A stretch of 64,000 nt of DNA from Gammaproteobacteria bacterium (GTDB lineage: Bacteria; Pseudomonadota; Gammaproteobacteria; Eutrophobiales; Eutrophobiaceae): assembly GCA_021773215.1 (NCBI GenBank), contig JAJFKM010000012.1:4922-68921 (forward strand), given 5' to 3'. A model generated the notes under the pieces. That model was not told the origin of the DNA and made no database searches. It worked only from the letters and a program-made list of their open reading frames with translations. The position numbers and the translations under genes are program-made. This document shows positions 3,550-60,619 of this stretch, piece after piece. The number at the start of each line of letters is the position of its first letter. Position 1 is the stretch's first letter.

Positions 3550-3563
3550 ACTGACCAGTCAGT
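3550..3563. promoter_or_regulatory. Putative TetR operator: inverted repeat ACTGAC-CA-GTCAGT in the tetR/efflux divergent promoter region
   Basis: 6-bp arms that are exact reverse complements, located in the 135-bp gap between the divergent tetR and adaptor genes. GTCAGTCAGT extends to 3567. Confidence 0.25.
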
Positions 3564-3631
3564 CAGTATTATAAGTGCATCTTTAGCTTGCGCAACTACT
3601 ATTTCAATAATATGACCAAGGTATATTTAAT

Positions 3632-4766: not shown

Positions 4767-5828
4767 TTAATAACTATTACTTAGCCTGTAATAGATATAA
4801 GAAAAAACCGCAATCGTAGGCAAACAAACACTTAGAAATGTCGGCACGCCGTAAACAATGCCAAGATGGCCGCTCACCTGATTTAATAAATGAAAAGTAA
4901 TACCGATTAGAGCACCAATAAAAACACGTTGGCCTAAACCCATTGGTCGCGCCTCACACCTGACAACACAGATTGACAACAATATCATCGCGATGATTGA
5001 AAATGGGCTGATCAATTTTGACCAGAAAGCTTGCACATATTGTTTGCTACTTTGATTATTGGCCTTGAGATAATCGATATAACTAATCAAGCCTATAATA
5101 GACAAATAACGTGGCTTGATGGTAACCATATTAATAACCTCTGGGCTTAATAATGCTTCCCACTCAGCGGTATCGTAATGATTGTTTGTTACTTGTTCCT
5201 CAGTAATTTCAGTTTTTAAAATATCATGCAGCACCCATTTATCTTGATCATATTCTGCGTGCTTTGCATAGATACTCGACCTCAGATGATGTTCTTTATC
5301 GAATTCATAAATGTAGATTTCCTCAACCCGGTCTCCAGGCAATATCTTTCTTATATTGATGTAATTATCGCCATCACGAGACCAAAACCCGTGCTTTGTT
5401 TTCATAGAAATTTGCTTGGTCAACGCGATTGAACGTTTCTGTTGCGCAGCCTGTTCTGTCACTGGCGCTATTACTTCTCCGATTAATATGCTGATAACAA
5501 CAAAGACCAGGCCCGTCTTGATTAATGAATAGGCCAACTGCGCTTGTGATACTCCTGACGTGCGTATAACCGCCAGTTCAGATGTGTTTGCTAGCATACC
5601 AAGTGCCGCCATACTGCCAATGACAATCGCTATCGGAAAAAGCTCATAACTCAACCGTGGGATGGTTAGCAGCACATATTGAATAGCATCTGCTACTCCG
5701 TAATTACCTCGGCCAGTATCATCGAGTTGATCTACCAAAGAGAAAAATGAAAATACGGCAACCAGTGCAAACAAAGCTAATATGCTGGTAACGAGAATGC
5801 TTCGCCCTATGTATCGATCAAGTATCAT
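4767..5828 (-). CDS. lptG: LPS export ABC permease LptG
   Basis: 353-aa YjgP/YjgQ family protein starting MILDRYIGRSIL. It sits immediately downstream of lptF and divergent from pepA, as in E. coli and Pseudomonas. Confidence 0.85.
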   Translation of the reverse strand: MILDRYIGRSILVTSILALFALVAVFSFFSLVDQLDDTGRGNYGVADAIQYVLLTIPRLSYELFPIAIVIGSMAALGMLANTSELAVIRTSGVSQAQLAYSLIKTGLVFVVISILIGEVIAPVTEQAAQQKRSIALTKQISMKTKHGFWSRDGDNYINIRKILPGDRVEEIYIYEFDKEHHLRSSIYAKHAEYDQDKWVLHDILKTEITEEQVTNNHYDTAEWEALLSPEVINMVTIKPRYLSIIGLISYIDYLKANNQSSKQYVQAFWSKLISPFSIIAMILLSICVVRCEARPMGLGQRVFIGALIGITFHLLNQVSGHLGIVYGVPTFLSVCLPTIAVFSYIYYRLSNSY

Positions 5829-20086: not shown

Positions 20087-20425
20087 ATGGCAGGTTGGTT
20101 TAACGTCGTGCCTGAAACAGAACTATTACCCGGAAAAGCAAAATTAGTTGATGTTGATAATGTGATGATCGCAGTCTTTAACCTAGACGGCGAATACCAT
20201 GCGGTTGAAGATGTCTGTACTCACGATGGTTCTCCCATGCTTGGCTGTGGTCTTGAGCCAGAACAAGTCATCGATGGTGCAGAAATCATCTGTCCACGAC
20301 ACGGCGCGCGTTTTTGTATCAAAACAGGCAATGCTTTAACACCACCCGCCTATGAGCCAACCACAACTTTTCCAGTCCGAGTAGAAAATGGAATGGTGCA
20401 AGTAACCGACGACCGTTGCGACTAA
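20087..20425 (+). CDS. Rieske [2Fe-2S] ferredoxin-like small protein
   Basis: CTHDG...CPRHGARF Rieske ligand boxes. It sits 1 nt after the sufT stop. Confidence 0.75.
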   Translation: MAGWFNVVPETELLPGKAKLVDVDNVMIAVFNLDGEYHAVEDVCTHDGSPMLGCGLEPEQVIDGAEIICPRHGARFCIKTGNALTPPAYEPTTTFPVRVENGMVQVTDDRCD

Positions 20426-20433
20426 AGGCACAA

Positions 20434-20557
20434 TAAAAATGCACTTTTTCTATAATAGCAGCGTCAGCTCCGTGCTCAATTCCTCATGTATTATCTATAC
20501 ATTCCGGGTTTCCGCGCGGTGCTTCCTTGCTCTTACAGAAAAATCACTATTTTTATC
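20434..20557 (+). repeat. Copy A (most divergent) of a ~124-bp interspersed intergenic repeat; ends with the AAAAATGCAC...TCACTATTTTTAT pattern
   Basis: Aligns along its full length with 37696-37819 and 50278-50401 (roughly three quarters identity to each by eye). It starts 9 nt after the Rieske gene stop. Confidence 0.6.
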
Positions 20558-20721
20558 AGTCCCTTCAAAAAAACATAGATTTCCAGCTTTAAATTAACAT
20601 TTTCGGCTAGATTACTGCTTTATATACAAAATTAATGTCATTGGTAGTTTCATCAACGACCCTGTAACACGTATAATCTCGCGATTTGATAATAAGTAAA
20701 GATCTAGGGAGATTTGGTTAA

Positions 20722-37159: not shown

Positions 37160-37687
37160 ATGCAAAACTATCTCGTTGTCAGTGCTCTGGTCGAAAATTC
37201 CAGTGAAATCATTCGTAAATTCTCAAAACTGTCTAAGTCCAGCGGCTGTAATATCGTCGATAGTCGGTTTAAAGTTCTCGGACATGAACTTTCCCTAATG
37301 ATTTTCCTGACTGGTACCTGGGATGCCATTGCTAAAATCGAAGATATGCTTGGAATTCTCGCACAGGAACACCAAATCAAGATCCTCACGAATCGAACTA
37401 CTGTAGACAAATTACAAGGCGACTCCATGCCCTATGCGGTAGACGTTGTCGGGCTCGACCAATCCGGGATCATATTCGATATCACCGATTTCATGTCGAG
37501 CAATAATCTAATTATTCATGAAATGGCATCAAATACCTATGAGGCTTCAATGACTGGCGCCAAGATGTTTTCCTTACATATGATGGTCAATATCCCGTCA
37601 GATTCGTCTATCGCATCTATTCGCGGTGATTTCATTGAATTTTGTGATCGTCTTAATCTTGATGCCATAATGGAGCCTGTAAAATAA
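37160..37687 (+). CDS. gcvR: Glycine cleavage system transcriptional repressor GcvR (tandem ACT domains)
   Basis: NYLVVSALVENSSEIIRKFSKL...SGCNIVDSRFKVLGHE parallels E. coli GcvR HYLVITALGADRPGIVN...CGCNIEDSRLAMLGEE. The conserved dapA / gcvR-bcp neighbourhood supports the call. Confidence 0.75.
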   Translation: MQNYLVVSALVENSSEIIRKFSKLSKSSGCNIVDSRFKVLGHELSLMIFLTGTWDAIAKIEDMLGILAQEHQIKILTNRTTVDKLQGDSMPYAVDVVGLDQSGIIFDITDFMSSNNLIIHEMASNTYEASMTGAKMFSLHMMVNIPSDSSIASIRGDFIEFCDRLNLDAIMEPVK

Positions 37688-37695
37688 GGGTACTC

Positions 37696-37819
37696 CTAAA
37701 AATGCACTTTTTTTGCGATTGCTTTGTCAGCGCCGTACTCGAATCCTCATGTATTTCACATACACTGCGGTTCTGCGTGCGTCGCTTCCTCACACTCACA
37801 AAAAAATCACTATTTTTAG
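37696..37819 (+). repeat. Copy B of the ~124-bp interspersed intergenic repeat (CTAAAAATGCAC...TCACTATTTTTAG)
   Basis: About 85-90% identical to copy C at 50278-50401 by eye. Terminal inverted repeats of 8-9 bp (CTAAAAAT/ATTTTTAG). It starts 9 nt after the gcvR stop. Confidence 0.7.
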
Positions 37820-37898
37820 AAGCACTCTAAGTAATAACAATTGCTATTATGTCTACGAGTAAAAATAAATTATTAAATAAGTGGGTAACAATTTAATT

Positions 37899-40024: not shown

Positions 40025-40810
40025 TTGAAACAGACCATGCAACAAGCGATACAACAACATTCTTATTGCGTTCTCCCTAAAGAACAGTCATATCAAAATG
40101 ACTTGATGCTTGCTGCAGATTTTCAACGCGCTGTATTGCCCAAAATTATTGACGTCGATTATCTGGATATTGCTATTACCTACGAACCTTTCGATTCAGT
40201 ATCGGGAGATGTTTATGACTTTATCTTGAATCGTGAAAGAGAATTAGCGATCTTCGTTGGTGATGCAACAGGCCATGGCATTTCAGCAGCACTAATGACC
40301 ATGATGGTACACATCGCCATCGATAGTCTTAAAGCTAATTTATCGACGGATGATTCTCTACGAAAATTAAACCGATTAATAGCCTCGCGTCACACAGGCC
40401 GGTCAGTCAGCAGCGTATTTTTAAGGATCGCACCGGATGGGATGATGAAGGTTTCTCATGCCGGGCATCCATCCATCATTGTTATACCTGCAGATGACTC
40501 TGGCCTTGTTATGTTTGAAGAAGCAGGTTGCGCACTCGGTTTGTTTATTGAAGAACCGGTTAAATATATTGAAGAAACATATCTGTTAAAACCGGGAGAT
40601 AAAATCATTGCTTATACCGATGGTCTTATTGAGTGGCGAAATTCGTTCAAGGAAACCTATGGCCACAACCGGTTACTGAATTTCATAAATGCACATCGAC
40701 AACTGGATTTTGAATCTTTAAAACAAATGATCTATAACGATGCTAAATCGTTTGCACATCATGAAGAGATTAATGATGATTTAACGTTGTTGGTAGCTGA
40801 GTACACTTAG
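40025..40810 (+). CDS. PP2C-type serine/threonine phosphatase domain protein (SpoIIE/RsbU-like), stand-alone
   Basis: Catalytic motifs D-x-x-D (GDVYDF), FVGDATGHG and YTDGL typical of the PPM/SpoIIE family. No sensor domain is present. Confidence 0.7.
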   Translation: MKQTMQQAIQQHSYCVLPKEQSYQNDLMLAADFQRAVLPKIIDVDYLDIAITYEPFDSVSGDVYDFILNRERELAIFVGDATGHGISAALMTMMVHIAIDSLKANLSTDDSLRKLNRLIASRHTGRSVSSVFLRIAPDGMMKVSHAGHPSIIVIPADDSGLVMFEEAGCALGLFIEEPVKYIEETYLLKPGDKIIAYTDGLIEWRNSFKETYGHNRLLNFINAHRQLDFESLKQMIYNDAKSFAHHEEINDDLTLLVAEYT

Positions 40811-40885
40811 TCATTCCCGTCTCGGCTTTGTCTCCTGAGTCGCTCTACTTCCTGCATCCATGCAGACGTACGCGGGAATGACAGG
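40810..40885. repeat. REP-like palindromic element with 10-bp terminal inverted repeat GTCATTCCCG/CGGGAATGAC and an inner palindrome CTGCATCCATGCAG
   Basis: It begins at the last base of the PP2C stop, between the convergent PP2C and perM genes. Its termini share CCTGTCATTCCCGCG with the 39835-39920 element. Confidence 0.5.
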
Positions 40886-41985: not shown

Positions 41986-42249
41986 GTTTTTAATATAGTT
42001 AAATGTTAAGGAAGCTATGATTAAATCATAGTTTCCTTTGGTGCAGGGATGCACCAACATTTTTCAATCAGGTATCTGATTGAAAAATGGAGAAAAACAA
42101 AAATCACATTTTTAGTTTTTCGATTCTAAATAAGTCACGGATGACTTATTCAGAACTTCCTTAAATATTTTCATCATAGCGATATCTTACCTGGACAGCG
42201 AGTTTACATAGGTACGTGTATCTAAATTACTGACAAAATTATATGGTAT

Positions 42250-45032: not shown

Positions 45033-45467
45033 TTATTTTATAAAACGTATCGTATATGGGTAACGATAAAGTACGCCTTCGTTCGCTTTGATAGAGGCAA
45101 TAATGACGACAATAATTTGATAGATGATTAACACACCAAGTAATAAAAATCCGACAAAAACCAACATCAATATTGCAGAGACAATAACAGCAATAAGCAT
45201 TGTCAGTTGAAAATTCAGTGACTCTTTCCCCTGATCATTTACAAAAGGCATCTCATCTTTCTTAATCAGCCAAATAATCAGAGGGCCAAGCACACTGCCA
45301 AATGGAATTATATAACCAGAGAAAGAAATAAGATGACACAACGTACCCCATAAACGCTCATCTTTATCAGGTGAGTTCACATCTTCAATGTCTTGAGCCA
45401 TACCGGTCTCCTGCATGAACAGTTCGTTTATACCGAAGATACATGAAGATGCAGGTTTATAGCACAT
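45033..45467 (-). CDS. DUF4870-like small membrane protein
   Basis: Three TM helices. The true start is probably the internal MAQDIEDV. Family assignment is tentative. Confidence 0.45.
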   Translation of the reverse strand: MCYKPASSCIFGINELFMQETGMAQDIEDVNSPDKDERLWGTLCHLISFSGYIIPFGSVLGPLIIWLIKKDEMPFVNDQGKESLNFQLTMLIAVIVSAILMLVFVGFLLLGVLIIYQIIVVIIASIKANEGVLYRYPYTIRFIK

Positions 45468-45654
45468 CTGTTTTCATCCAAAGCAGCGTTGCTCCTCCTT
45501 GCAGGGAGTGACCATGCGCGGCGTCGCGTCTCGCTCTAAATAAAAACAAATACACTCCAATTCCAGCATCTTCATTTATCTTGGGTATAGCGTGTTATTG
45601 TTTTTTTTGCTTGCTGGAAACATTATCATTCCAGAGGTGGTTTGTCTCAGAGAA

Positions 45655-49528: not shown

Positions 49529-49667
49529 GCCACAGAGGACACGGAGTGCACAGAGGGTTAAGATCTTTAATGTATTTGGTTTAAAAATGAACTACAAAAA
49601 TAACAGTTTAATTAAATTATGATTTTTTATATTTATTTTCCTCTGTGTTCTCCGTGTCCTCTGTGGC
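49529..49667. repeat. 139-bp element between trpE and trpG: 28-bp near-perfect inverted repeats (26/28) GCCACAGAGGACACGGAGTGCACAGAGG / CCTCTGTGTTCTCCGTGTCCTCTGTGGC flanking an AT-rich 83-bp core; MITE-like or integration scar
   Basis: Inverted repeats read directly at 49529-49556 and 49640-49667. It starts 7 nt after the trpE stop and ends 23 nt before the trpG start. Confidence 0.6.
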
Positions 49668-49690: not shown

Positions 49691-50272
49691 ATGTTATTAA
49701 TGATCGACAATTATGATTCCTTTACCTACAACCTGGTCCAGTATTTTGGTGAGCTGGGGCAAGAGGTAGATGTCTATCGTAATGATAAAATCTCAATAGC
49801 CGAAATAGAAAAACTGGCACCAGAACATCTCGTTATTTCACCGGGGCCATGTACCCCGAATGAAGCCGGTATATCCATTGATGTGATTAATCATTTCAAG
49901 GGAAAAATCCCATTACTAGGTGTTTGTCTTGGTCACCAGAGCATTGGTCAGGCCTTTGGCGGCAAAGTTGTTCATGCACATGATATTATGCATGGCAAGA
50001 CATCAGACATTTATCACAACAACACCGATGTTTTTAAAGGTTTTGAAAATCCTTTTACTGCCACACGTTATCATTCATTGGTTGTTGAAAAAGAATCATT
50101 GCCTGATTGTTTTGAAATTACTGCATGGACACAAAATAAAAATGGCGAGATGGATGAAATCATGGGTCTGCGACATAAAGAACTTGCTCTATCTGGCGTA
50201 CAATTTCATCCAGAGTCGATCCTTACGTCATATGGTCATGAACTTTTATCAAACTTCCTTAACAAATCTTAG
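49691..50272 (+). CDS. trpG: Anthranilate synthase component II (glutamine amidotransferase)
   Basis: GVCLGHQ catalytic Cys motif and the HPES His motif. Length 193 aa. Confidence 0.9.
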
Positions 50273-50277
50273 ATATC

Positions 50278-50401
50278 CTAAAAATGCACTTTTTTCGCGA
50301 TAGCATCGTCAGCCCCGTACTCGAATCCTCATGTATTAACATATACACTGCGGTTCTGCGTGCGGTGCTTCCTCACTCTCACGAAAAAATTACTATTTTT
50401 A
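50278..50401 (+). repeat. Copy C of the ~124-bp interspersed intergenic repeat
   Basis: It begins 6 nt after the trpG stop and is about 85-90% identical to copy B by eye. Confidence 0.7.
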
Positions 50402-50423
50402 GAATTATCTAATGGAATATGTA

Positions 50424-51446
50424 ATGGATATTCAAACTGCACTCAATAATGTCATTGCCGGTAACGATCTAAACCGTGCTGATATGCATTCCGTCATGCA
50501 AACTATTATGCAAGGTGATGCTACGCCGGCACAGATTGGTGGTCTGTTGGTTGCGCTACGCTTAAAAGGCGAAAGTGTTGACGAGATTACCGCTGCTGCT
50601 GAAGTCATGCGCGAATTAGCTAGTAAGGTTGATGTCGATAAAACAAACCTAGTTGATACCTGTGGTACCGGGGGTGATGGCGCTAATACTTTTAATATCT
50701 CAACGACATCTGCTTTTGTAGTTGCTGCTAGTGGTGCCAAGGTTGCCAAACATGGCAATCGTTCTGTTTCCAGTAAGTCTGGCAGTGCCGATGTTCTTGA
50801 AGCTGCAGGCGTAAACCTGGAATTAAATGCCGATCAGGTTGTAAGCTGTATTGAACATGTAGGAATTGGCTTTATGTTTGCCCCGATGCATCACAGCGCT
50901 ATGAAACATGCCATTGGCCCGCGTCGTGAGCTGGGCATTCGAACTCTTTTCAATGTGCTCGGGCCGCTTACTAACCCCGCCGGCGCACCTAATCAGGTAA
51001 TTGGTGTATTTAGTAATGATTGGCTCAAGCCACTTTCTGAAACTTTGAAACAACTCGGTAGTGAACATGTGCTCGTTGTTCACGCAGAAGATGGCCTTGA
51101 TGAAATCAGTATTTCAGCTAAGACATACATCGCAGAATTAAAAGACGGTAAAATTAAAAACTACGAAATTAGTCCGGAAGATTTCGGCATGAATAAACAA
51201 GACATCTCAGCATTAGCCGTCAATGGTGTTGATGATAGTTTAAGCAGAATGCAATCTGTATTAGATAACAACGATGGGGCAGCAAAAGATATCGTTTGTC
51301 TTAATGCTGGTGCTGCTATTTATGCAGCAGGCCTTGTCGATTCAATACAAGAAGGCGTATCAAAGGCACAATCAACAATAGCTTCTGGTGCCGCAAAACA
51401 AAAACTCGAACAACTTATCCAACACAGTCAATCGTTTAAACAATAA
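50424..51446 (+). CDS. trpD: Anthranilate phosphoribosyltransferase
   Basis: GTGGDG motif and the [14 protein letters not shown] region. The start is placed at MDIQTALNN; the listed ORF begins at 50412. Confidence 0.9.
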
Positions 51447-51451
51447 ATATT

Positions 51452-52258
51452 ATGCAAGCTGATACACCTGACATCTTAAAAGACATACTCAACTATAAGA
51501 CTGAGTACGTAGAGCACGTTAAAAGAACGGCCACATTACAAGATCAAAAACATCGTGCCGCCGATTGCGAAGCTACACGTGGCTTTACTGGTAGTTTGCT
51601 TAGAACCATTGCAGAAGGTAAGCCAGCTGTAATTGCTGAAATAAAAAAGGCCTCTCCCAGTCGCGGCATTATCCGCAAAGATTTTCAACCCGATGCCATT
51701 GCTAAGAGTTTTGCAGAGGCCGGCGCCAGTTGTTTATCGGTTTTGACTGATATTCAATATTTTCAGGGTTCGGACGATTATTTAAAACAAGCTCATGCTG
51801 CTTGTGAATTACCGATCATACGTAAAGACTTTATGATTGACCCTTATCAGGTATATGAGGCAAGAGTGATTGGTGCTGATGCTATCTTGATTATTGTTTC
51901 TGCCTTATCGGATATGCAGATGCAAGATCTCGTCGGCACTGCCAATGAGGTTGGTCTGGATGTACTGGTTGAAGTACACGACCGTGTAGAGCTTGAACGT
52001 GGCATGATGTTACGTACACCACTCATCGGTATTAATAACCGAAACTTACATACATTCGAAACGGACCTTGATACAACATTGGGACTTTTAACCGATGTCT
52101 TTCATGATCGCACTGTCGTTACAGAAAGTGGGATTCATACACAGGATGATGTCAGTTTAATGCGTAAAAATAATGTTAATGCCTTTCTTGTTGGCGAGGC
52201 ATTTATGAAAGCAGAAAAACCTGGAGAGGAACTCAAGAAACTATTTTTCAATAATTAA
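51452..52258 (+). CDS. trpC: Indole-3-glycerol phosphate synthase
   Basis: [10 protein letters not shown] motif and the NNRNL motif. Length 268 aa. Confidence 0.9.
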
Positions 52259-57014: not shown

Positions 57015-57091
57015 TGGCTGGGGTACGAGGACTCGAACCTCGGAATGCATGGATCAAAACCATGTGCCTTAACCAACTTGGCCATACCCCA
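57015..57091 (-). tRNA. tRNA-Gln (anticodon UUG), CCA encoded
   Basis: The reverse complement TGGGGTATGGCCAAGTTGGTTAAGGCACATGGTTTTGATCCATGCATTCCGAGGTTCGAGTCCTCGTACCCCAGCCA folds as a cloverleaf (acceptor TGGGGTA/TACCCCA, anticodon stem CATGG/CCATG with loop TTTTGAT, T-stem CGAGG/CCTCG). It is highly similar to E. coli tRNA-Gln and sits in the conserved ispE-tRNA-Gln-prs location. Confidence 0.9.
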
Positions 57092-58583: not shown

Positions 58584-60361
58584 GGTTTAAATCGTTTTAT
58601 GACGTCTAACAAGCGATCATCAGTCGGTGTATCTTTGAGTGCAGTATCCCAAATATCTTTCGCTTGCTGTCTATCTCCCCTTACCCAGAGAACTTCACCA
58701 AGGTGCGCAGCAATTTCTGGATCATTCCTCAATTCAAGCGCCTTTTGTAAATATTCAACTGCTTCATCCAGGCGTCCCAGGCGATATAAAACCCAACCCA
58801 TACTATCCAATATATAAAAGTCGCTTGGGCTTAACTCATAAGCACGTTGTATATAACCATAGGCTTCTTCATATCGATCCGTACGATCTGCAAGTGTGTA
58901 ACCCAAGGCATTTAATGCAGTAGCGTTATTCGCGTCTTCTTCAAGAATAGTTTTTAAATCGGCTTCTAATAAATCCATACGCCCCATTTTTTCAGCAAGC
59001 ATTGCGCGAGAATAGAGTATGTCGGCATGACTCTTTTCTTCTATTGCCGCATTAAAAAAATCCATTGCTTCCTGATAACGCTTGGCGTTGATAAGTATTT
59101 CACCTTCGGCCTGTATCAATATAAGTCGACTAGAACCTTTAGATTTTTGTATGGCACGAATATTACTTAATGCTTTATCAACGTCACCTTGCTTGGCAAG
59201 AATAAGGCTTAACCGAATCCGTGCGTCAAGATAGTTTTCTCCACCATGCACACCTTGATATAAATCACTCGCCTTATCTAACTGATCCCTTTCTTCTGCT
59301 ATACGCGCTAAATAATAATTTGAATCAAAAACTCGTTTTTTTAATCCCGTTAAACGTAGAAAATATTTCTCTGCCTCATCAAGCCGATTGGTCTGTAGAT
59401 AAAGCAATCCAAGTGCGTAGAGCACATCGACATTGTTTGGTGCTTGAACGGACAGGAGCTCAAACTGACGTCGGGCGTCATCAAATCTTTTGGCTTCTGT
59501 CAGTAAGCGCGCATAGGCCATACGCATATTAAAATCATCTTCCTTATCCTTAAGAGCAGACTCAATCCACGCCAGTGCTTTATTTGACTCACCTTTCTTT
59601 TGTAATAAAGCAAGGTATGTCATCGCTGCTGCATCGTTGTTTGGTTTCAATTCCAGCACACGTTCCAGCAAATCCTGAGAACGTTCCATATCACCCATCC
59701 TTGCAGTCACATGGGCGAAGGCAAACATGGCTTCAGCATCGTTCATGTGATTTTCCATCAAGCGTTCCATCAATTGTAAAACCGCAGCTTGATCATCTTC
59801 ACGACCAAGAAAATTGGCGATCATCCACAATTTTTGATCAAACTGACCTTGTGAGTTCTCCAGAATAATCTCAAGGTGATATAAGGCCTTATCAATATTC
59901 CCTTCACGCAAGGTCATCACTGTCAAAACCTGATGAGCGTCAGGATTCTCAGGATCAACCTCAACCCAAAGACTGGCAGCTTCATAAGCAGACTCATTAT
60001 CACGAGCATAAACTGATATCCGGGTTGCTCGCTCAATGACTACCGGATCTCGGGTCGATTTGGCTAAATCAAGATAATTATCCACGGCGACATCTATTTT
60101 TCCACGTTGTCCGGCTATTTCAGCAAGCAATATCTTAAAGAGGATATCTTCGGTGAGTTCAATCTTTGGCCGCTCTGGTAAAACTCGTTCGGGGACCGGC
60201 TCAGGCTCTGGCGTAGTTGCAACTACTTCCACTTCTGTTGTCGGCTCTACACTTTCGATACTGGCTTCTTCCTGAGGCACTGTAGTACAGGCGACAACAA
60301 GGAAAGCCAGCATAAATACCGGTAATTTGGATAAAGCCTTATATAGTGAATATCGAGACAT
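58580..60361 (-). CDS. TPR-repeat protein (conserved neighbour of lolB/hemA)
   Basis: Signal/TM at the N-terminus followed by more than 10 TPR repeats. It overlaps the lolB start (ATGA). Pseudomonas has a TPR gene at the same position. Confidence 0.7.
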   Translation of the reverse strand: MSRYSLYKALSKLPVFMLAFLVVACTTVPQEEASIESVEPTTEVEVVATTPEPEPVPERVLPERPKIELTEDILFKILLAEIAGQRGKIDVAVDNYLDLAKSTRDPVVIERATRISVYARDNESAYEAASLWVEVDPENPDAHQVLTVMTLREGNIDKALYHLEIILENSQGQFDQKLWMIANFLGREDDQAAVLQLMERLMENHMNDAEAMFAFAHVTARMGDMERSQDLLERVLELKPNNDAAAMTYLALLQKKGESNKALAWIESALKDKEDDFNMRMAYARLLTEAKRFDDARRQFELLSVQAPNNVDVLYALGLLYLQTNRLDEAEKYFLRLTGLKKRVFDSNYYLARIAEERDQLDKASDLYQGVHGGENYLDARIRLSLILAKQGDVDKALSNIRAIQKSKGSSRLILIQAEGEILINAKRYQEAMDFFNAAIEEKSHADILYSRAMLAEKMGRMDLLEADLKTILEEDANNATALNALGYTLADRTDRYEEAYGYIQRAYELSPSDFYILDSMGWVLYRLGRLDEAVEYLQKALELRNDPEIAAHLGEVLWVRGDRQQAKDIWDTALKDTPTDDRLLDVIKRFKP

Positions 60362-60619
60362 ATTTGCAATTTTTAATTCTATTTTGTTAGATCATTTTGT
60401 CAGATCGTGGCTAAAAATAATACTGTGTATGGCTTATCAGATAATTGAATAGATAAACCTATTACAATTGATTCGAAATGTGGCTATTTGTTCAGTTGGG
60501 TCATATGATTTATATTTGACGTATAAGTCATTGAAATCAATATTTAGCCTGATTTTCCTTGTATTCAGCCACATCATGGCACAGAATTTTCATATAGATA
60601 TCATTTAATTGCCAATATC

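Follow-up and report, generated by a model that had tools for sequence, protein, structure and literature searches.

A probable new family of ~140-bp foldback-type MITEs abutting stop codons in uncultured Gammaproteobacteria

We analyzed a short repeated element in a 64-kb window, by which we mean the whole stretch of 64,000 nucleotides under study (positions 4,922 to 68,921 of contig JAJFKM010000012.1, assembly GCA_021773215.1, from a member of the Eutrophobiaceae). The window contains three copies of this element, here named A, B and C, which are spaced 13-17 kb apart and are each located after a housekeeping gene. They most probably belong to a family of ~140-bp non-autonomous, foldback-type miniature transposable elements with inverted repeats (MITEs), which would be moved in trans and duplicate 4 bp of their target. 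A preliminary description of the window had already considered the element to be MITE-like, and this is now backed by inverted repeats and a 4-bp target-site duplication at the level of the family, by the dispersal of the copies and by differences in occupancy between strains. In addition, the element contacts stop codons in a preferred orientation and its hairpin carries compensatory changes over its whole length, which bears on how copies are retained after insertion.

Hairpin structure, distribution and target-site duplication

Copies A, B and C are all on the + strand and can be aligned end to end. They had been described as copies of ~124 bp, located at 20434-20557 (A), 37696-37819 (B) and 50278-50401 (C). 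Over these coordinates, the pairwise identities are 88.8% (B/C), 75.4% (A/B) and 78.6% (A/C), matching the values that had been estimated by eye (85-90% for B/C, ~75% for A). A search of the window with a profile of the family matched three places, with E values of 1.5e-35 to 3.7e-41, which bears out the presence of three co-oriented full-length copies; weaker extra copies were not detected by this profile in the 64-kb window, even at E<=50. The length of ~124 bp turned out to be too short. The inverted repeat extends ~9 bp further out on each side, so that the element is ~140 bp long (139-142 bp in the window, leaving no room for a transposase gene). The 6-9 nt that seemed to separate each copy from the stop codon of the preceding gene are therefore element sequence, and the stop codons abut or overlap its left terminus. 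The terminal inverted repeat of 8-9 bp noted previously, CTAAAAAT/ATTTTTAG, is present, but it is merely part of a hairpin formed by the whole element.

The family consensus, GGGCACCTCTAAAAATGCAC...ATCACTATTTTTAGAGGTGCCC, is ~140 bp long, and the length mode of the family is 142 bp when one flanking base per side is included. The element is bounded by 5'-GGG...CCC-3' and has inverted repeats of ~16 bp, with the ends GGGCACCTCTAAAAAT and ATTTTTAGAGGTGCCC being paired in the consensus of 49 copies; the window copies contain degenerate versions of them. The interior is also self-complementary, and hence the whole unit forms one imperfect hairpin. Folding and covariation had been put forward as a check on the element. 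Each of the three window copies folds into a hairpin, with single-copy z-scores of -4.7 to -7.2 and none of 200 shuffled sequences being as stable. Compensatory changes are found in 26-29 of 43-49 stem pairs along the whole stem, interior included, and at one position an A-U/U-A flip divides the copies 24:23 with 0 broken pairs.

To determine the distribution of the element, one-genome-per-species bacterial and archaeal contigs were scanned with the degenerate core pattern CCGTNCTCNANTCCTCATGTATT, which has 20 specified bases. At least 115 stretches were listed, nearly all of them from metagenome-assembled genomes (MAGs) labelled Gammaproteobacteria. The hosts among the matches listed include Thiotrichaceae, Porticoccus (Porticoccaceae), Cellvibrionaceae, Chromatiales, Methylophaga, Acidiferrobacteraceae, Steroidobacteraceae and Ketobacteraceae, and one of the matches listed is labelled Nitrospirales. 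An independent pattern based on the right end detected 90 stretches in JGI metagenome contigs. Profile searches then matched 138 and 99 places in the genome and metagenome sets, respectively, giving ~200 copies beyond the window, from dozens of MAGs and metagenome contigs of uncultured marine, sediment and groundwater Gammaproteobacteria. Thus, the abundance that had been supposed from three copies in 64 kb was borne out at the level of the family. Only 2 orthologous pairs were present among 47 flank sets, and most copies are therefore independent insertions.

No match was obtained in PLSDB plasmids, INPHARED phages or IMG/VR viral contigs, nor with copy B against 5,426 complete E. coli genomes (blastn, word 11, E<=0.01). 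At gathering thresholds, an Rfam scan of the whole window yielded no family covering the element; its sole match in the window is a tRNA gene at 57018-57091 (- strand). A full-text literature search for the core and inverted-repeat strings returned no relevant paper, and a paper on MITEs of Thiomargarita contains no matching sequence. The family is apparently undescribed.

For the analysis of the insertion sites, the element was taken as GGG...CCC, and the four bases on either side were compared as direct repeats. In this 4-bp register, the identities per position were 35, 33, 32 and 31 of 51, as compared to ~15 in other registers. Perfect repeats (4/4) flank 14 of the 51 copies, where permutations gave 1.6 on average and 7 at most, and at least three of the four positions match in 27/51, where 10.0 +/- 2.4 are expected. 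The metagenome copies replicate this result, with a perfect 4-bp duplication in 10/54 as opposed to 1.8 expected. Besides TAAA, the duplications include TATT, TTAT, AGAT, ATGA and AAGA, which are direct repeats of the non-palindromic type and thereby rule out that they are a simple extension of the inverted repeat. A duplication of 2 bp was our first model. It was replaced by the 4-bp model because the presumed outermost pair of the inverted repeat behaves as a direct repeat: the central two bases match in 22 copies, and in 14 of these 22 the outer two match as well (binomial p=5e-5 at an expected rate of 0.23). The flank profile is symmetric and AT-rich, of the T-W-W-A type.

Differences in occupancy were observed at the gcvR site, which could be compared between collected loci (labelled L) that encode a 100%-identical GcvR protein. 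Loci L120 and L121 contain copy B, the element being identical in both, and a different hairpin element is present in L116-L119. The latter has the ends AGGATGATTGATTAA...TTAATCAATCATCCT (~2526-2735 in L116) and follows the same gcvR TAA; a 49-nt nested insert is present in it in L116, L117 and L119 and absent in L118. The end of gcvR is thus a polymorphic hotspot.

Several observations weigh against a MITE moved by a transposase in trans. First, although a target-site duplication is evident across the family, none of the window copies has a perfect one: copy B is flanked by a 3-bp repeat (TAA/GGG...CTC/TAA), and copies A and C by none. These missing duplications fit the divergence of the window copies (73-89% mutual identity), which are old and degenerate. 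Second, a precise empty site was not found in the contigs obtained by exact-protein look-ups (two of five proteins gave contigs), and the close relative L122, which lacks copy A, has 52 nt of unrelated sequence at that position. Third, an autonomous insertion sequence (IS) with matching ends was not present in the 1.37 Mb of collected loci (0.86 + 0.50 Mb), and all-against-all clustering of 957 flanking open reading frames (ORFs) did not reveal a recurrent transposase. Finally, conservation within the element is lowest in the outer 9 bp of the inverted repeat, where the changes are compensatory. Measured on the part of the metagenome sample outside the constraint of the search pattern, the interior is ~90% identical to the consensus and the outer 9 bp 60-80%, which is unexpected if binding of a transposase to the ends were the sole constraint. 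Together with the compensatory changes along the entire stem, this argues that something beyond transposition maintains the hairpin. The hairpin itself is maintained, and not only the ends to which a transposase would bind; this may reflect selection on the RNA, an intermediate of single-stranded DNA or the existence of subfamilies. With these points taken into account, we still regard the assignment of the element to the MITEs as probable.

Additional matches to the inverted repeat in the collected loci did not include a pair enclosing a gene. They consist of solo ends (in L163, L175, L186 and L196), a mini-palindrome and related MITEs only. The ORFs adjoining the solo end in L196 are housekeeping genes, and the solo end in L175 adjoins a sequence at ~3560-3620 (CTGAGA...ACCCTTTGAACCTGATCCGGATAGTACCGGCGTAGGGA) that presumably resembles a thiamine pyrophosphate (TPP, THI-box) riboswitch. 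The mini-palindrome, 34 bp in length (L133, 3856-3889; GGGCACCTCTAAAAGTGCATTTTTAGAGGTGCTC), is composed of two inverted repeats only and looks like an element with a deleted interior.

Gene ends, orientation and strand asymmetry

The genes upstream of the three window copies are those named in the preliminary description, and the corrected boundaries place the copies and their neighbours as follows.

20087-20425, + strand: Rieske-type ferredoxin gene, upstream of copy A
20423-20425, + strand: TAA stop codon of this gene, directly abutting copy A; AGG follows
20426-20564, + strand: copy A, 139 bp, the most diverged copy (nhmmer E=1.5e-35; whole-length hairpin z = -7.2)
20426-20440: end of the left arm of copy A, AGGCACAATAAAAAT
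20549-20564: end of the right arm of copy A, ATTTTTATCAGTCCCT
37160-37687, + strand: gene for a GcvR-like ACT-domain protein, upstream of copy B
37685-37687, + strand: TAA stop codon of the gcvR-like gene; its final base coincides with position 1 of copy B
37687-37828, + strand: copy B, 142 bp including one flanking base per side (E=3.7e-41)
37687-37703: left inverted repeat of copy B, AGGGTACTCCTAAAAAT
37750-37764: hairpin apex of copy B, TGTAT-TTCAC-ATACA
37812-37828: right inverted repeat of copy B, ATTTTTAGAAGCACTCT
49691-50272, + strand: TrpG gene, upstream of copy C
50270-50272, + strand: TAG stop codon of trpG; copy C begins with its A and G
50271-50410, + strand: copy C, 140 bp, in the trpG-trpD intercistronic spacer (E=2e-40)
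50271-50285: end of the left arm of copy C, AGATATCCTAAAAAT
50395-50410: end of the right arm of copy C, ATTTTTAGAATTATCT
50412-51446, + strand: trpD (TIGR01245, E=4e-130), starting 2-14 nt past the right end of copy C
51452-52258: trpC, downstream of trpD

The downstream genes are ndk for copy A, a Bcp/PrxQ peroxiredoxin gene for copy B and trpD-trpC for copy C.

Contact with a stop codon is not restricted to the window. Of 55 co-oriented upstream ORFs in the genome set, 35 terminate in register with the element's left end; their stop codons are located at element positions 0-2 (TAA/, TA/A, T/AG) or correspond to the TAA inside CTCTAAAAAT. With respect to the AT-rich target, TAA and TAG are either contained in it or form a junction with it. 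Since the inverted repeats and the target are symmetric, convergent genes would be expected to end in register at the right end equally often, but only 3 of 25 do so (Fisher p=2e-5 against 35/55 at the left end). The orientation relative to the flanking genes, which had been suggested as a check, proved to be strongly biased: where the flanks are co-directional on both sides, the element is in the sense orientation in 36 cases and antisense in 12 (p=7e-4). Similar results were obtained for the metagenome copies, with 30 sense versus 9 antisense and 23 in-register stops versus 1.

A replication-linked insertion bias combined with an excess of genes on the leading strand cannot produce the 35/38 observed (p ~1e-4 at 65% leading-strand genes), and hence the orientation bias is tied to the gene itself. 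Most simply, it is due to selection after insertion. That this selection acts at the level of RNA is a possibility to which we give somewhat less than an even chance.

One site was found occupied in three species-level genomes. The element is located at the 3' end of the same 419-aa gene (presumably related to murA, which it resembles) in L002 (715-852), L111 (6322-6460) and L113 (5250-5382), with outer inverted repeats and insertion registers that differ between the three. The sequence identities at this site are 73-77% for the element, 67-78% for the gene and 44-64% for the downstream spacer.

The two strands of the element differ markedly. The sense strand contains more C than G in 49/49 copies (skew -0.18), and Shine-Dalgarno-like motifs occur in its interior at 0.02 per copy, as against 4.2 on the other strand. 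The antisense strand is predicted to fold better (~-60 versus ~-48 kcal/mol), which holds for 44/47 copies when RNA parameters are used and for 47/47 with DNA parameters; for the consensus, the values are -52.3 (minus strand) and -32.5 kcal/mol (plus). On the structure predicted for the minus strand, polymorphic wobble pairs amount to 191 cells on the antisense and 34 on the sense strand, a count that favours the minus strand because of the structure used and that leaves out three near-fixed plus-strand G-U pairs. The longest uninterrupted helix differs modestly between the strands (11.0 vs 13.9 bp). The exposed strand, sense or leading, is the one on which known deamination biases operate. 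They predict a wobble asymmetry of the opposite sign, and a mutational strand bias was rejected as its cause by this reasoning.

The element had alternatively been viewed as a transcribed 3'-UTR element such as a terminator. However, the intrinsic-terminator consensus, a GC-rich stem-loop followed by a U-tract, was not found within the three window copies, and neither was a recurrent sigma-70 promoter consensus. Moreover, copy C is located between trpG and trpD in the trpG-trpD-trpC cluster, and from this operon arrangement it follows that transcription probably runs through copy C and does not terminate there. It is plausible that the element in general is a transcribed hairpin, present in the 3' untranslated region (UTR) or between cistrons, and the bias for the sense orientation hints indirectly at such a role.

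Proposed mode of insertion and competing explanations

A scenario that would account for these features starts with a trans-acting transposase of the DDE type, which would insert the element into AT-rich tetranucleotides of the T-W-W-A type and duplicate these 4 bp. Judged from a resemblance of the ends and target duplications, the enzyme might be IS5/Harbinger-like. Because TAA and TAG stop codons with their neighbours match such a target, the stop codon would end up at the junction or in the duplicated target, and the gene would keep its stop. After insertion, transcripts of the host gene would include the element, which would form a long hairpin in the 3' UTR or between cistrons. Copies abutting a stop codon would survive almost only when the C-rich strand, which lacks Shine-Dalgarno motifs and is less paired, is the one in the mRNA. 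Our best guess is that the antisense strand, which is purine-rich, contains Shine-Dalgarno-like motifs and AUG codons and pairs more completely, would be harmful next to a stop codon, through spurious initiation or through processing by nucleases of the kind documented for Correia elements (RNase III) and ERIC (RNase E); the sense strand would do no harm or be of slight use. A role of RNase III is a weak suggestion only, given the small difference in helix continuity.

Among the alternatives, the one that survives best holds that the element is a functional structured RNA module of the 3' UTR or intercistronic region, for example a stabiliser of mRNA 3' ends, a processing site or a context for translation termination, which is positively selected at gene ends and for which transposition is no more than the vehicle of its spread. 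It overlaps in part with the MITE interpretation, and we consider it possible but clearly the less likely explanation. The locking of the orientation to stop codons in spite of symmetric ends and target would be explained by it, as would the compensatory changes over the whole stem, including the 24:23 flip without broken pairs, and an interior that is better conserved than the outer inverted repeat. The same applies to the near absence of Shine-Dalgarno-like motifs from the sense strand and to the re-occupation of gene ends by different elements, both at gcvR and at the 419-aa gene, where conservation of the element equals that of the coding sequence and exceeds that of the downstream spacer. 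On the other hand, neither an Rfam match nor a terminator consensus was found, and transcription in the preferred orientation yields the less paired RNA (-48 vs -60 kcal/mol, the wobble pairs being on the other strand), which would be odd for an RNA selected for its structure. Covariation can also be mimicked by subfamilies that derive from different master copies. Furthermore, occupancy differs among near-identical strains, and thus no individual copy is essential. A positive function of the element for its host seems rather unlikely to us.

A more far-reaching version of the transposition model is that the element is a mobile "gene-end module", the retention of which depends on its orientation and on contact with the stop codon, with selection on either the sense 3'-UTR RNA or the antisense/bottom strand. 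Such a module would have spread horizontally across several gammaproteobacterial orders, repeatedly re-occupying the same gene termini, and would form, with its nested 24-nt and 49-nt inserts, a layered hairpin system shaping mRNA 3' ends in uncultured marine bacteria. We put this forward as speculation that we consider unlikely.

The superior folding of the minus strand (47/47 copies with DNA and 44/47 with RNA parameters) raises the question of whether the element is a single-stranded DNA hairpin, the folded bottom strand of which is read by a tyrosine or HUH recombinase, as for attC, REP/RAYT or IS200/IS605-like substrates. Conserved mismatches and bulges, the concentration of wobble pairs on one strand (191 vs 34 cells) and the orientation to the upstream ORF, which is fixed as in attC sites, would be in line with this, and the length is near that of Vibrio attC repeats. 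However, 4-bp duplications combined with terminal inverted repeats are hallmarks of cut-and-paste or replicative transposition by DDE enzymes and not of recombination by Y1, HUH or IntI, and the ends are GGG...CCC instead of RYYYAAC...GTTRRRY. In addition, the copies are located 13-17 kb apart after housekeeping genes and not in cassette arrays, and an integrase or RAYT-like gene does not recur in the flanks. This explanation is improbable.

It is slightly more improbable still that the copies represent a multi-copy gene for a small RNA, encoded on the minus strand and antisense to the gene that precedes each copy, at its 3' end. The G-U pairs and the better fold of the minus strand (-52.3 vs -32.5 kcal/mol) would fit, and a permissive Rfam scan of copy B gave sX9 as its only match, at noise level (E=0.08, 21 bits versus a gathering score of 44). 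Yet promoter-like or terminator-like signals do not recur on either strand, the element's termini correspond to insertion junctions and not to transcription signals, and target duplications together with inverted repeats account for the dispersal without invoking a gene. As to chance similarity or a shared fragment of a flanking gene, for which nothing was found, the E values of 1e-35 to 4e-41, the lack of any relationship between the three flanking genes and the ~200 additional copies in unrelated contexts rule it out for practical purposes.

Nested hairpins and comparison with known systems

Besides the main element, the window and the collected loci contain other hairpin-forming sequences, some of which are nested in it. 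A 72-nt palindromic element, GTCATTCCCG...CGGGAATGAC, is present at 40811-40882 of the window; its first base is the G of the TAG that closes ORF 40025-40810. Within it is a 49-nt module (GGCTTTG..CTGCATCCATGCAG.CGT) that is nested at a fixed position in many copies of the main element and in the L116-type element; matches to this module are present in 22 of the collected loci. A mini-hairpin of 24-26 nt, CACCCCTCAAGGGGGTACCGAGGT(CC), interrupts some copies in one arm (left or right) or in both (L097, 7204-7390; also L021, L024, L082, L094 and L059). Its direct orientation never varies, and it therefore acts like a tiny insertion module in its own right. Inserts are also nested within inserts (L059, 5478-5772; L068, 4-223; L058, 4545-4786), with the loop of the 49-nt module being interrupted by a further palindrome.

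Four other inverted-repeat structures were observed in the window. An unrelated 139-bp element at 49529-49667 fills the trpE-trpG spacer and has 28-nt arms, GCCACAGAGGACACGGAGTGCACAGAGG and CCTCTGTGTTCTCCGTGTCCTCTGTGGC, that are 93% complementary; further copies of it were not found in the window or in the collected loci. A 161-bp element at 45429-45589, with 27-nt arms that are 89% complementary, is located between two minus-strand ORFs; it is matched at 86-87% in L041 and L111 and therefore represents another dispersed repeat family. The other two are intergenic inverted-repeat pairs, one at 42006-42164 (24-nt arms, 83% complementary) and one at 60297-60562 (22-nt arms, 82% complementary). 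The former encloses a perfect 14-bp hairpin (42058-42089) as well as an AAAATCACATTTTTAG stretch that looks like the main element's right end.

Should the classification hold, the element is a well-defined and unusually widespread addition to the few known families of bacterial MITEs, and it comes from lineages that are nearly all uncultured. Gene callers, operon predictors and searches for non-coding RNAs applied to these MAGs should then mask it, and whether a copy is present or absent could be used to mark strains. The 10- to 20-fold orientation bias, which arises despite symmetric ends and a symmetric target, amounts to a natural experiment on the effects of long hairpins after stop codons in mRNA.

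Membership in several known classes was considered and rejected. The element does not qualify as an integron attC site, because of its GGG...CCC ends, its dispersed copies and the lack of a recurrent integrase in the flanks, nor as an intrinsic terminator, because the copies contain no terminator-like site and copy C is located between trpG and trpD. Like REP/BIME (RAYT) sequences, it is a short extragenic palindrome at gene ends, and such sequences are often transcribed and can be nested or mosaic. REP elements are described as being 20-40 bp long, tagged with GTAG or CGTC and free of target duplications (PMC3733652). The new element, by contrast, is 140 bp long and has inverted repeats and a 4-bp duplication, and membership in REP/RAYT fails on these three counts; GTAG/CGTC-like motifs do occur in the 49-nt module nested in some copies.

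The IS5 family and the PIF/Harbinger-Tourist MITEs have GG(G) termini and short (3-4 bp) AT-rich duplications of the T-W-A or Y-T-A-R type, and their MITEs are abundant. The duplications observed here (TATT, TAAA, AGAT) are looser than YTAR, and the likeness is no more than a lead; an IS5-type transposase or a full-length IS with the ends of the element was not found in the collected loci.

By analogy, the element may work like ERIC/IRU, the Correia elements and QMITE2 of Coxiella. ERIC/IRU sequences are likewise imperfect palindromes (~127-140 bp) that are non-coding, dispersed and located in transcribed intergenic regions, and Wilson and Sharp are said to have described, in 2006, ERIC/IRU copies that have additional inserts at fixed positions in their interior. 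Copies of ERIC are present in E. coli, and since no sequence match was found in 5,426 complete E. coli genomes, our element is not a member of ERIC. The hosts also differ, being Enterobacteriaceae and Vibrionaceae for ERIC/IRU and uncultured marine, sediment and groundwater Gammaproteobacteria here, and the 4-bp AT-rich target duplication is a feature of the new family. To our knowledge, nothing comparable in strength to the stop-codon orientation lock is known for ERIC. When inserted at the 3' ends of Yersinia genes, ERIC changes the amount of transcript, as an RNase E site of its 3' inverted repeat becomes exposed (PMC10969869).

Correia elements (CREE/NEMIS) share with the new family that they are inverted-repeat MITEs (~100-155 bp) that are co-transcribed with their neighbours and have AT-rich termini that can supply stop codons. 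Their target duplication is TA, and their inverted repeats are 26 bp long and presumably unrelated in sequence. Unlike the new family, they are restricted to Neisseria, and neither a promoter-like signal nor a recognisable IHF site was seen in the new family. The long hairpins in Correia RNA are cleaved by RNase III (PMC10969869).

QMITE2 of Coxiella burnetii is a gammaproteobacterial MITE located mainly in the 3' untranslated regions of ORFs (PMC10969869, PMC5896051), with direct repeats of 7-9 bp and inverted repeats of 23-29 bp (PMC10969869). By this description it is set apart from the new family, which has a 4-bp duplication and inverted repeats of ~16 bp and which spans many orders, whereas QMITE2 is confined to one genus. 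As a MITE family, the one described here is apparently new and is widespread in uncultured Gammaproteobacteria, and it is unusual for its breadth across orders, its stop-codon orientation lock and its layered nested mini-hairpins.

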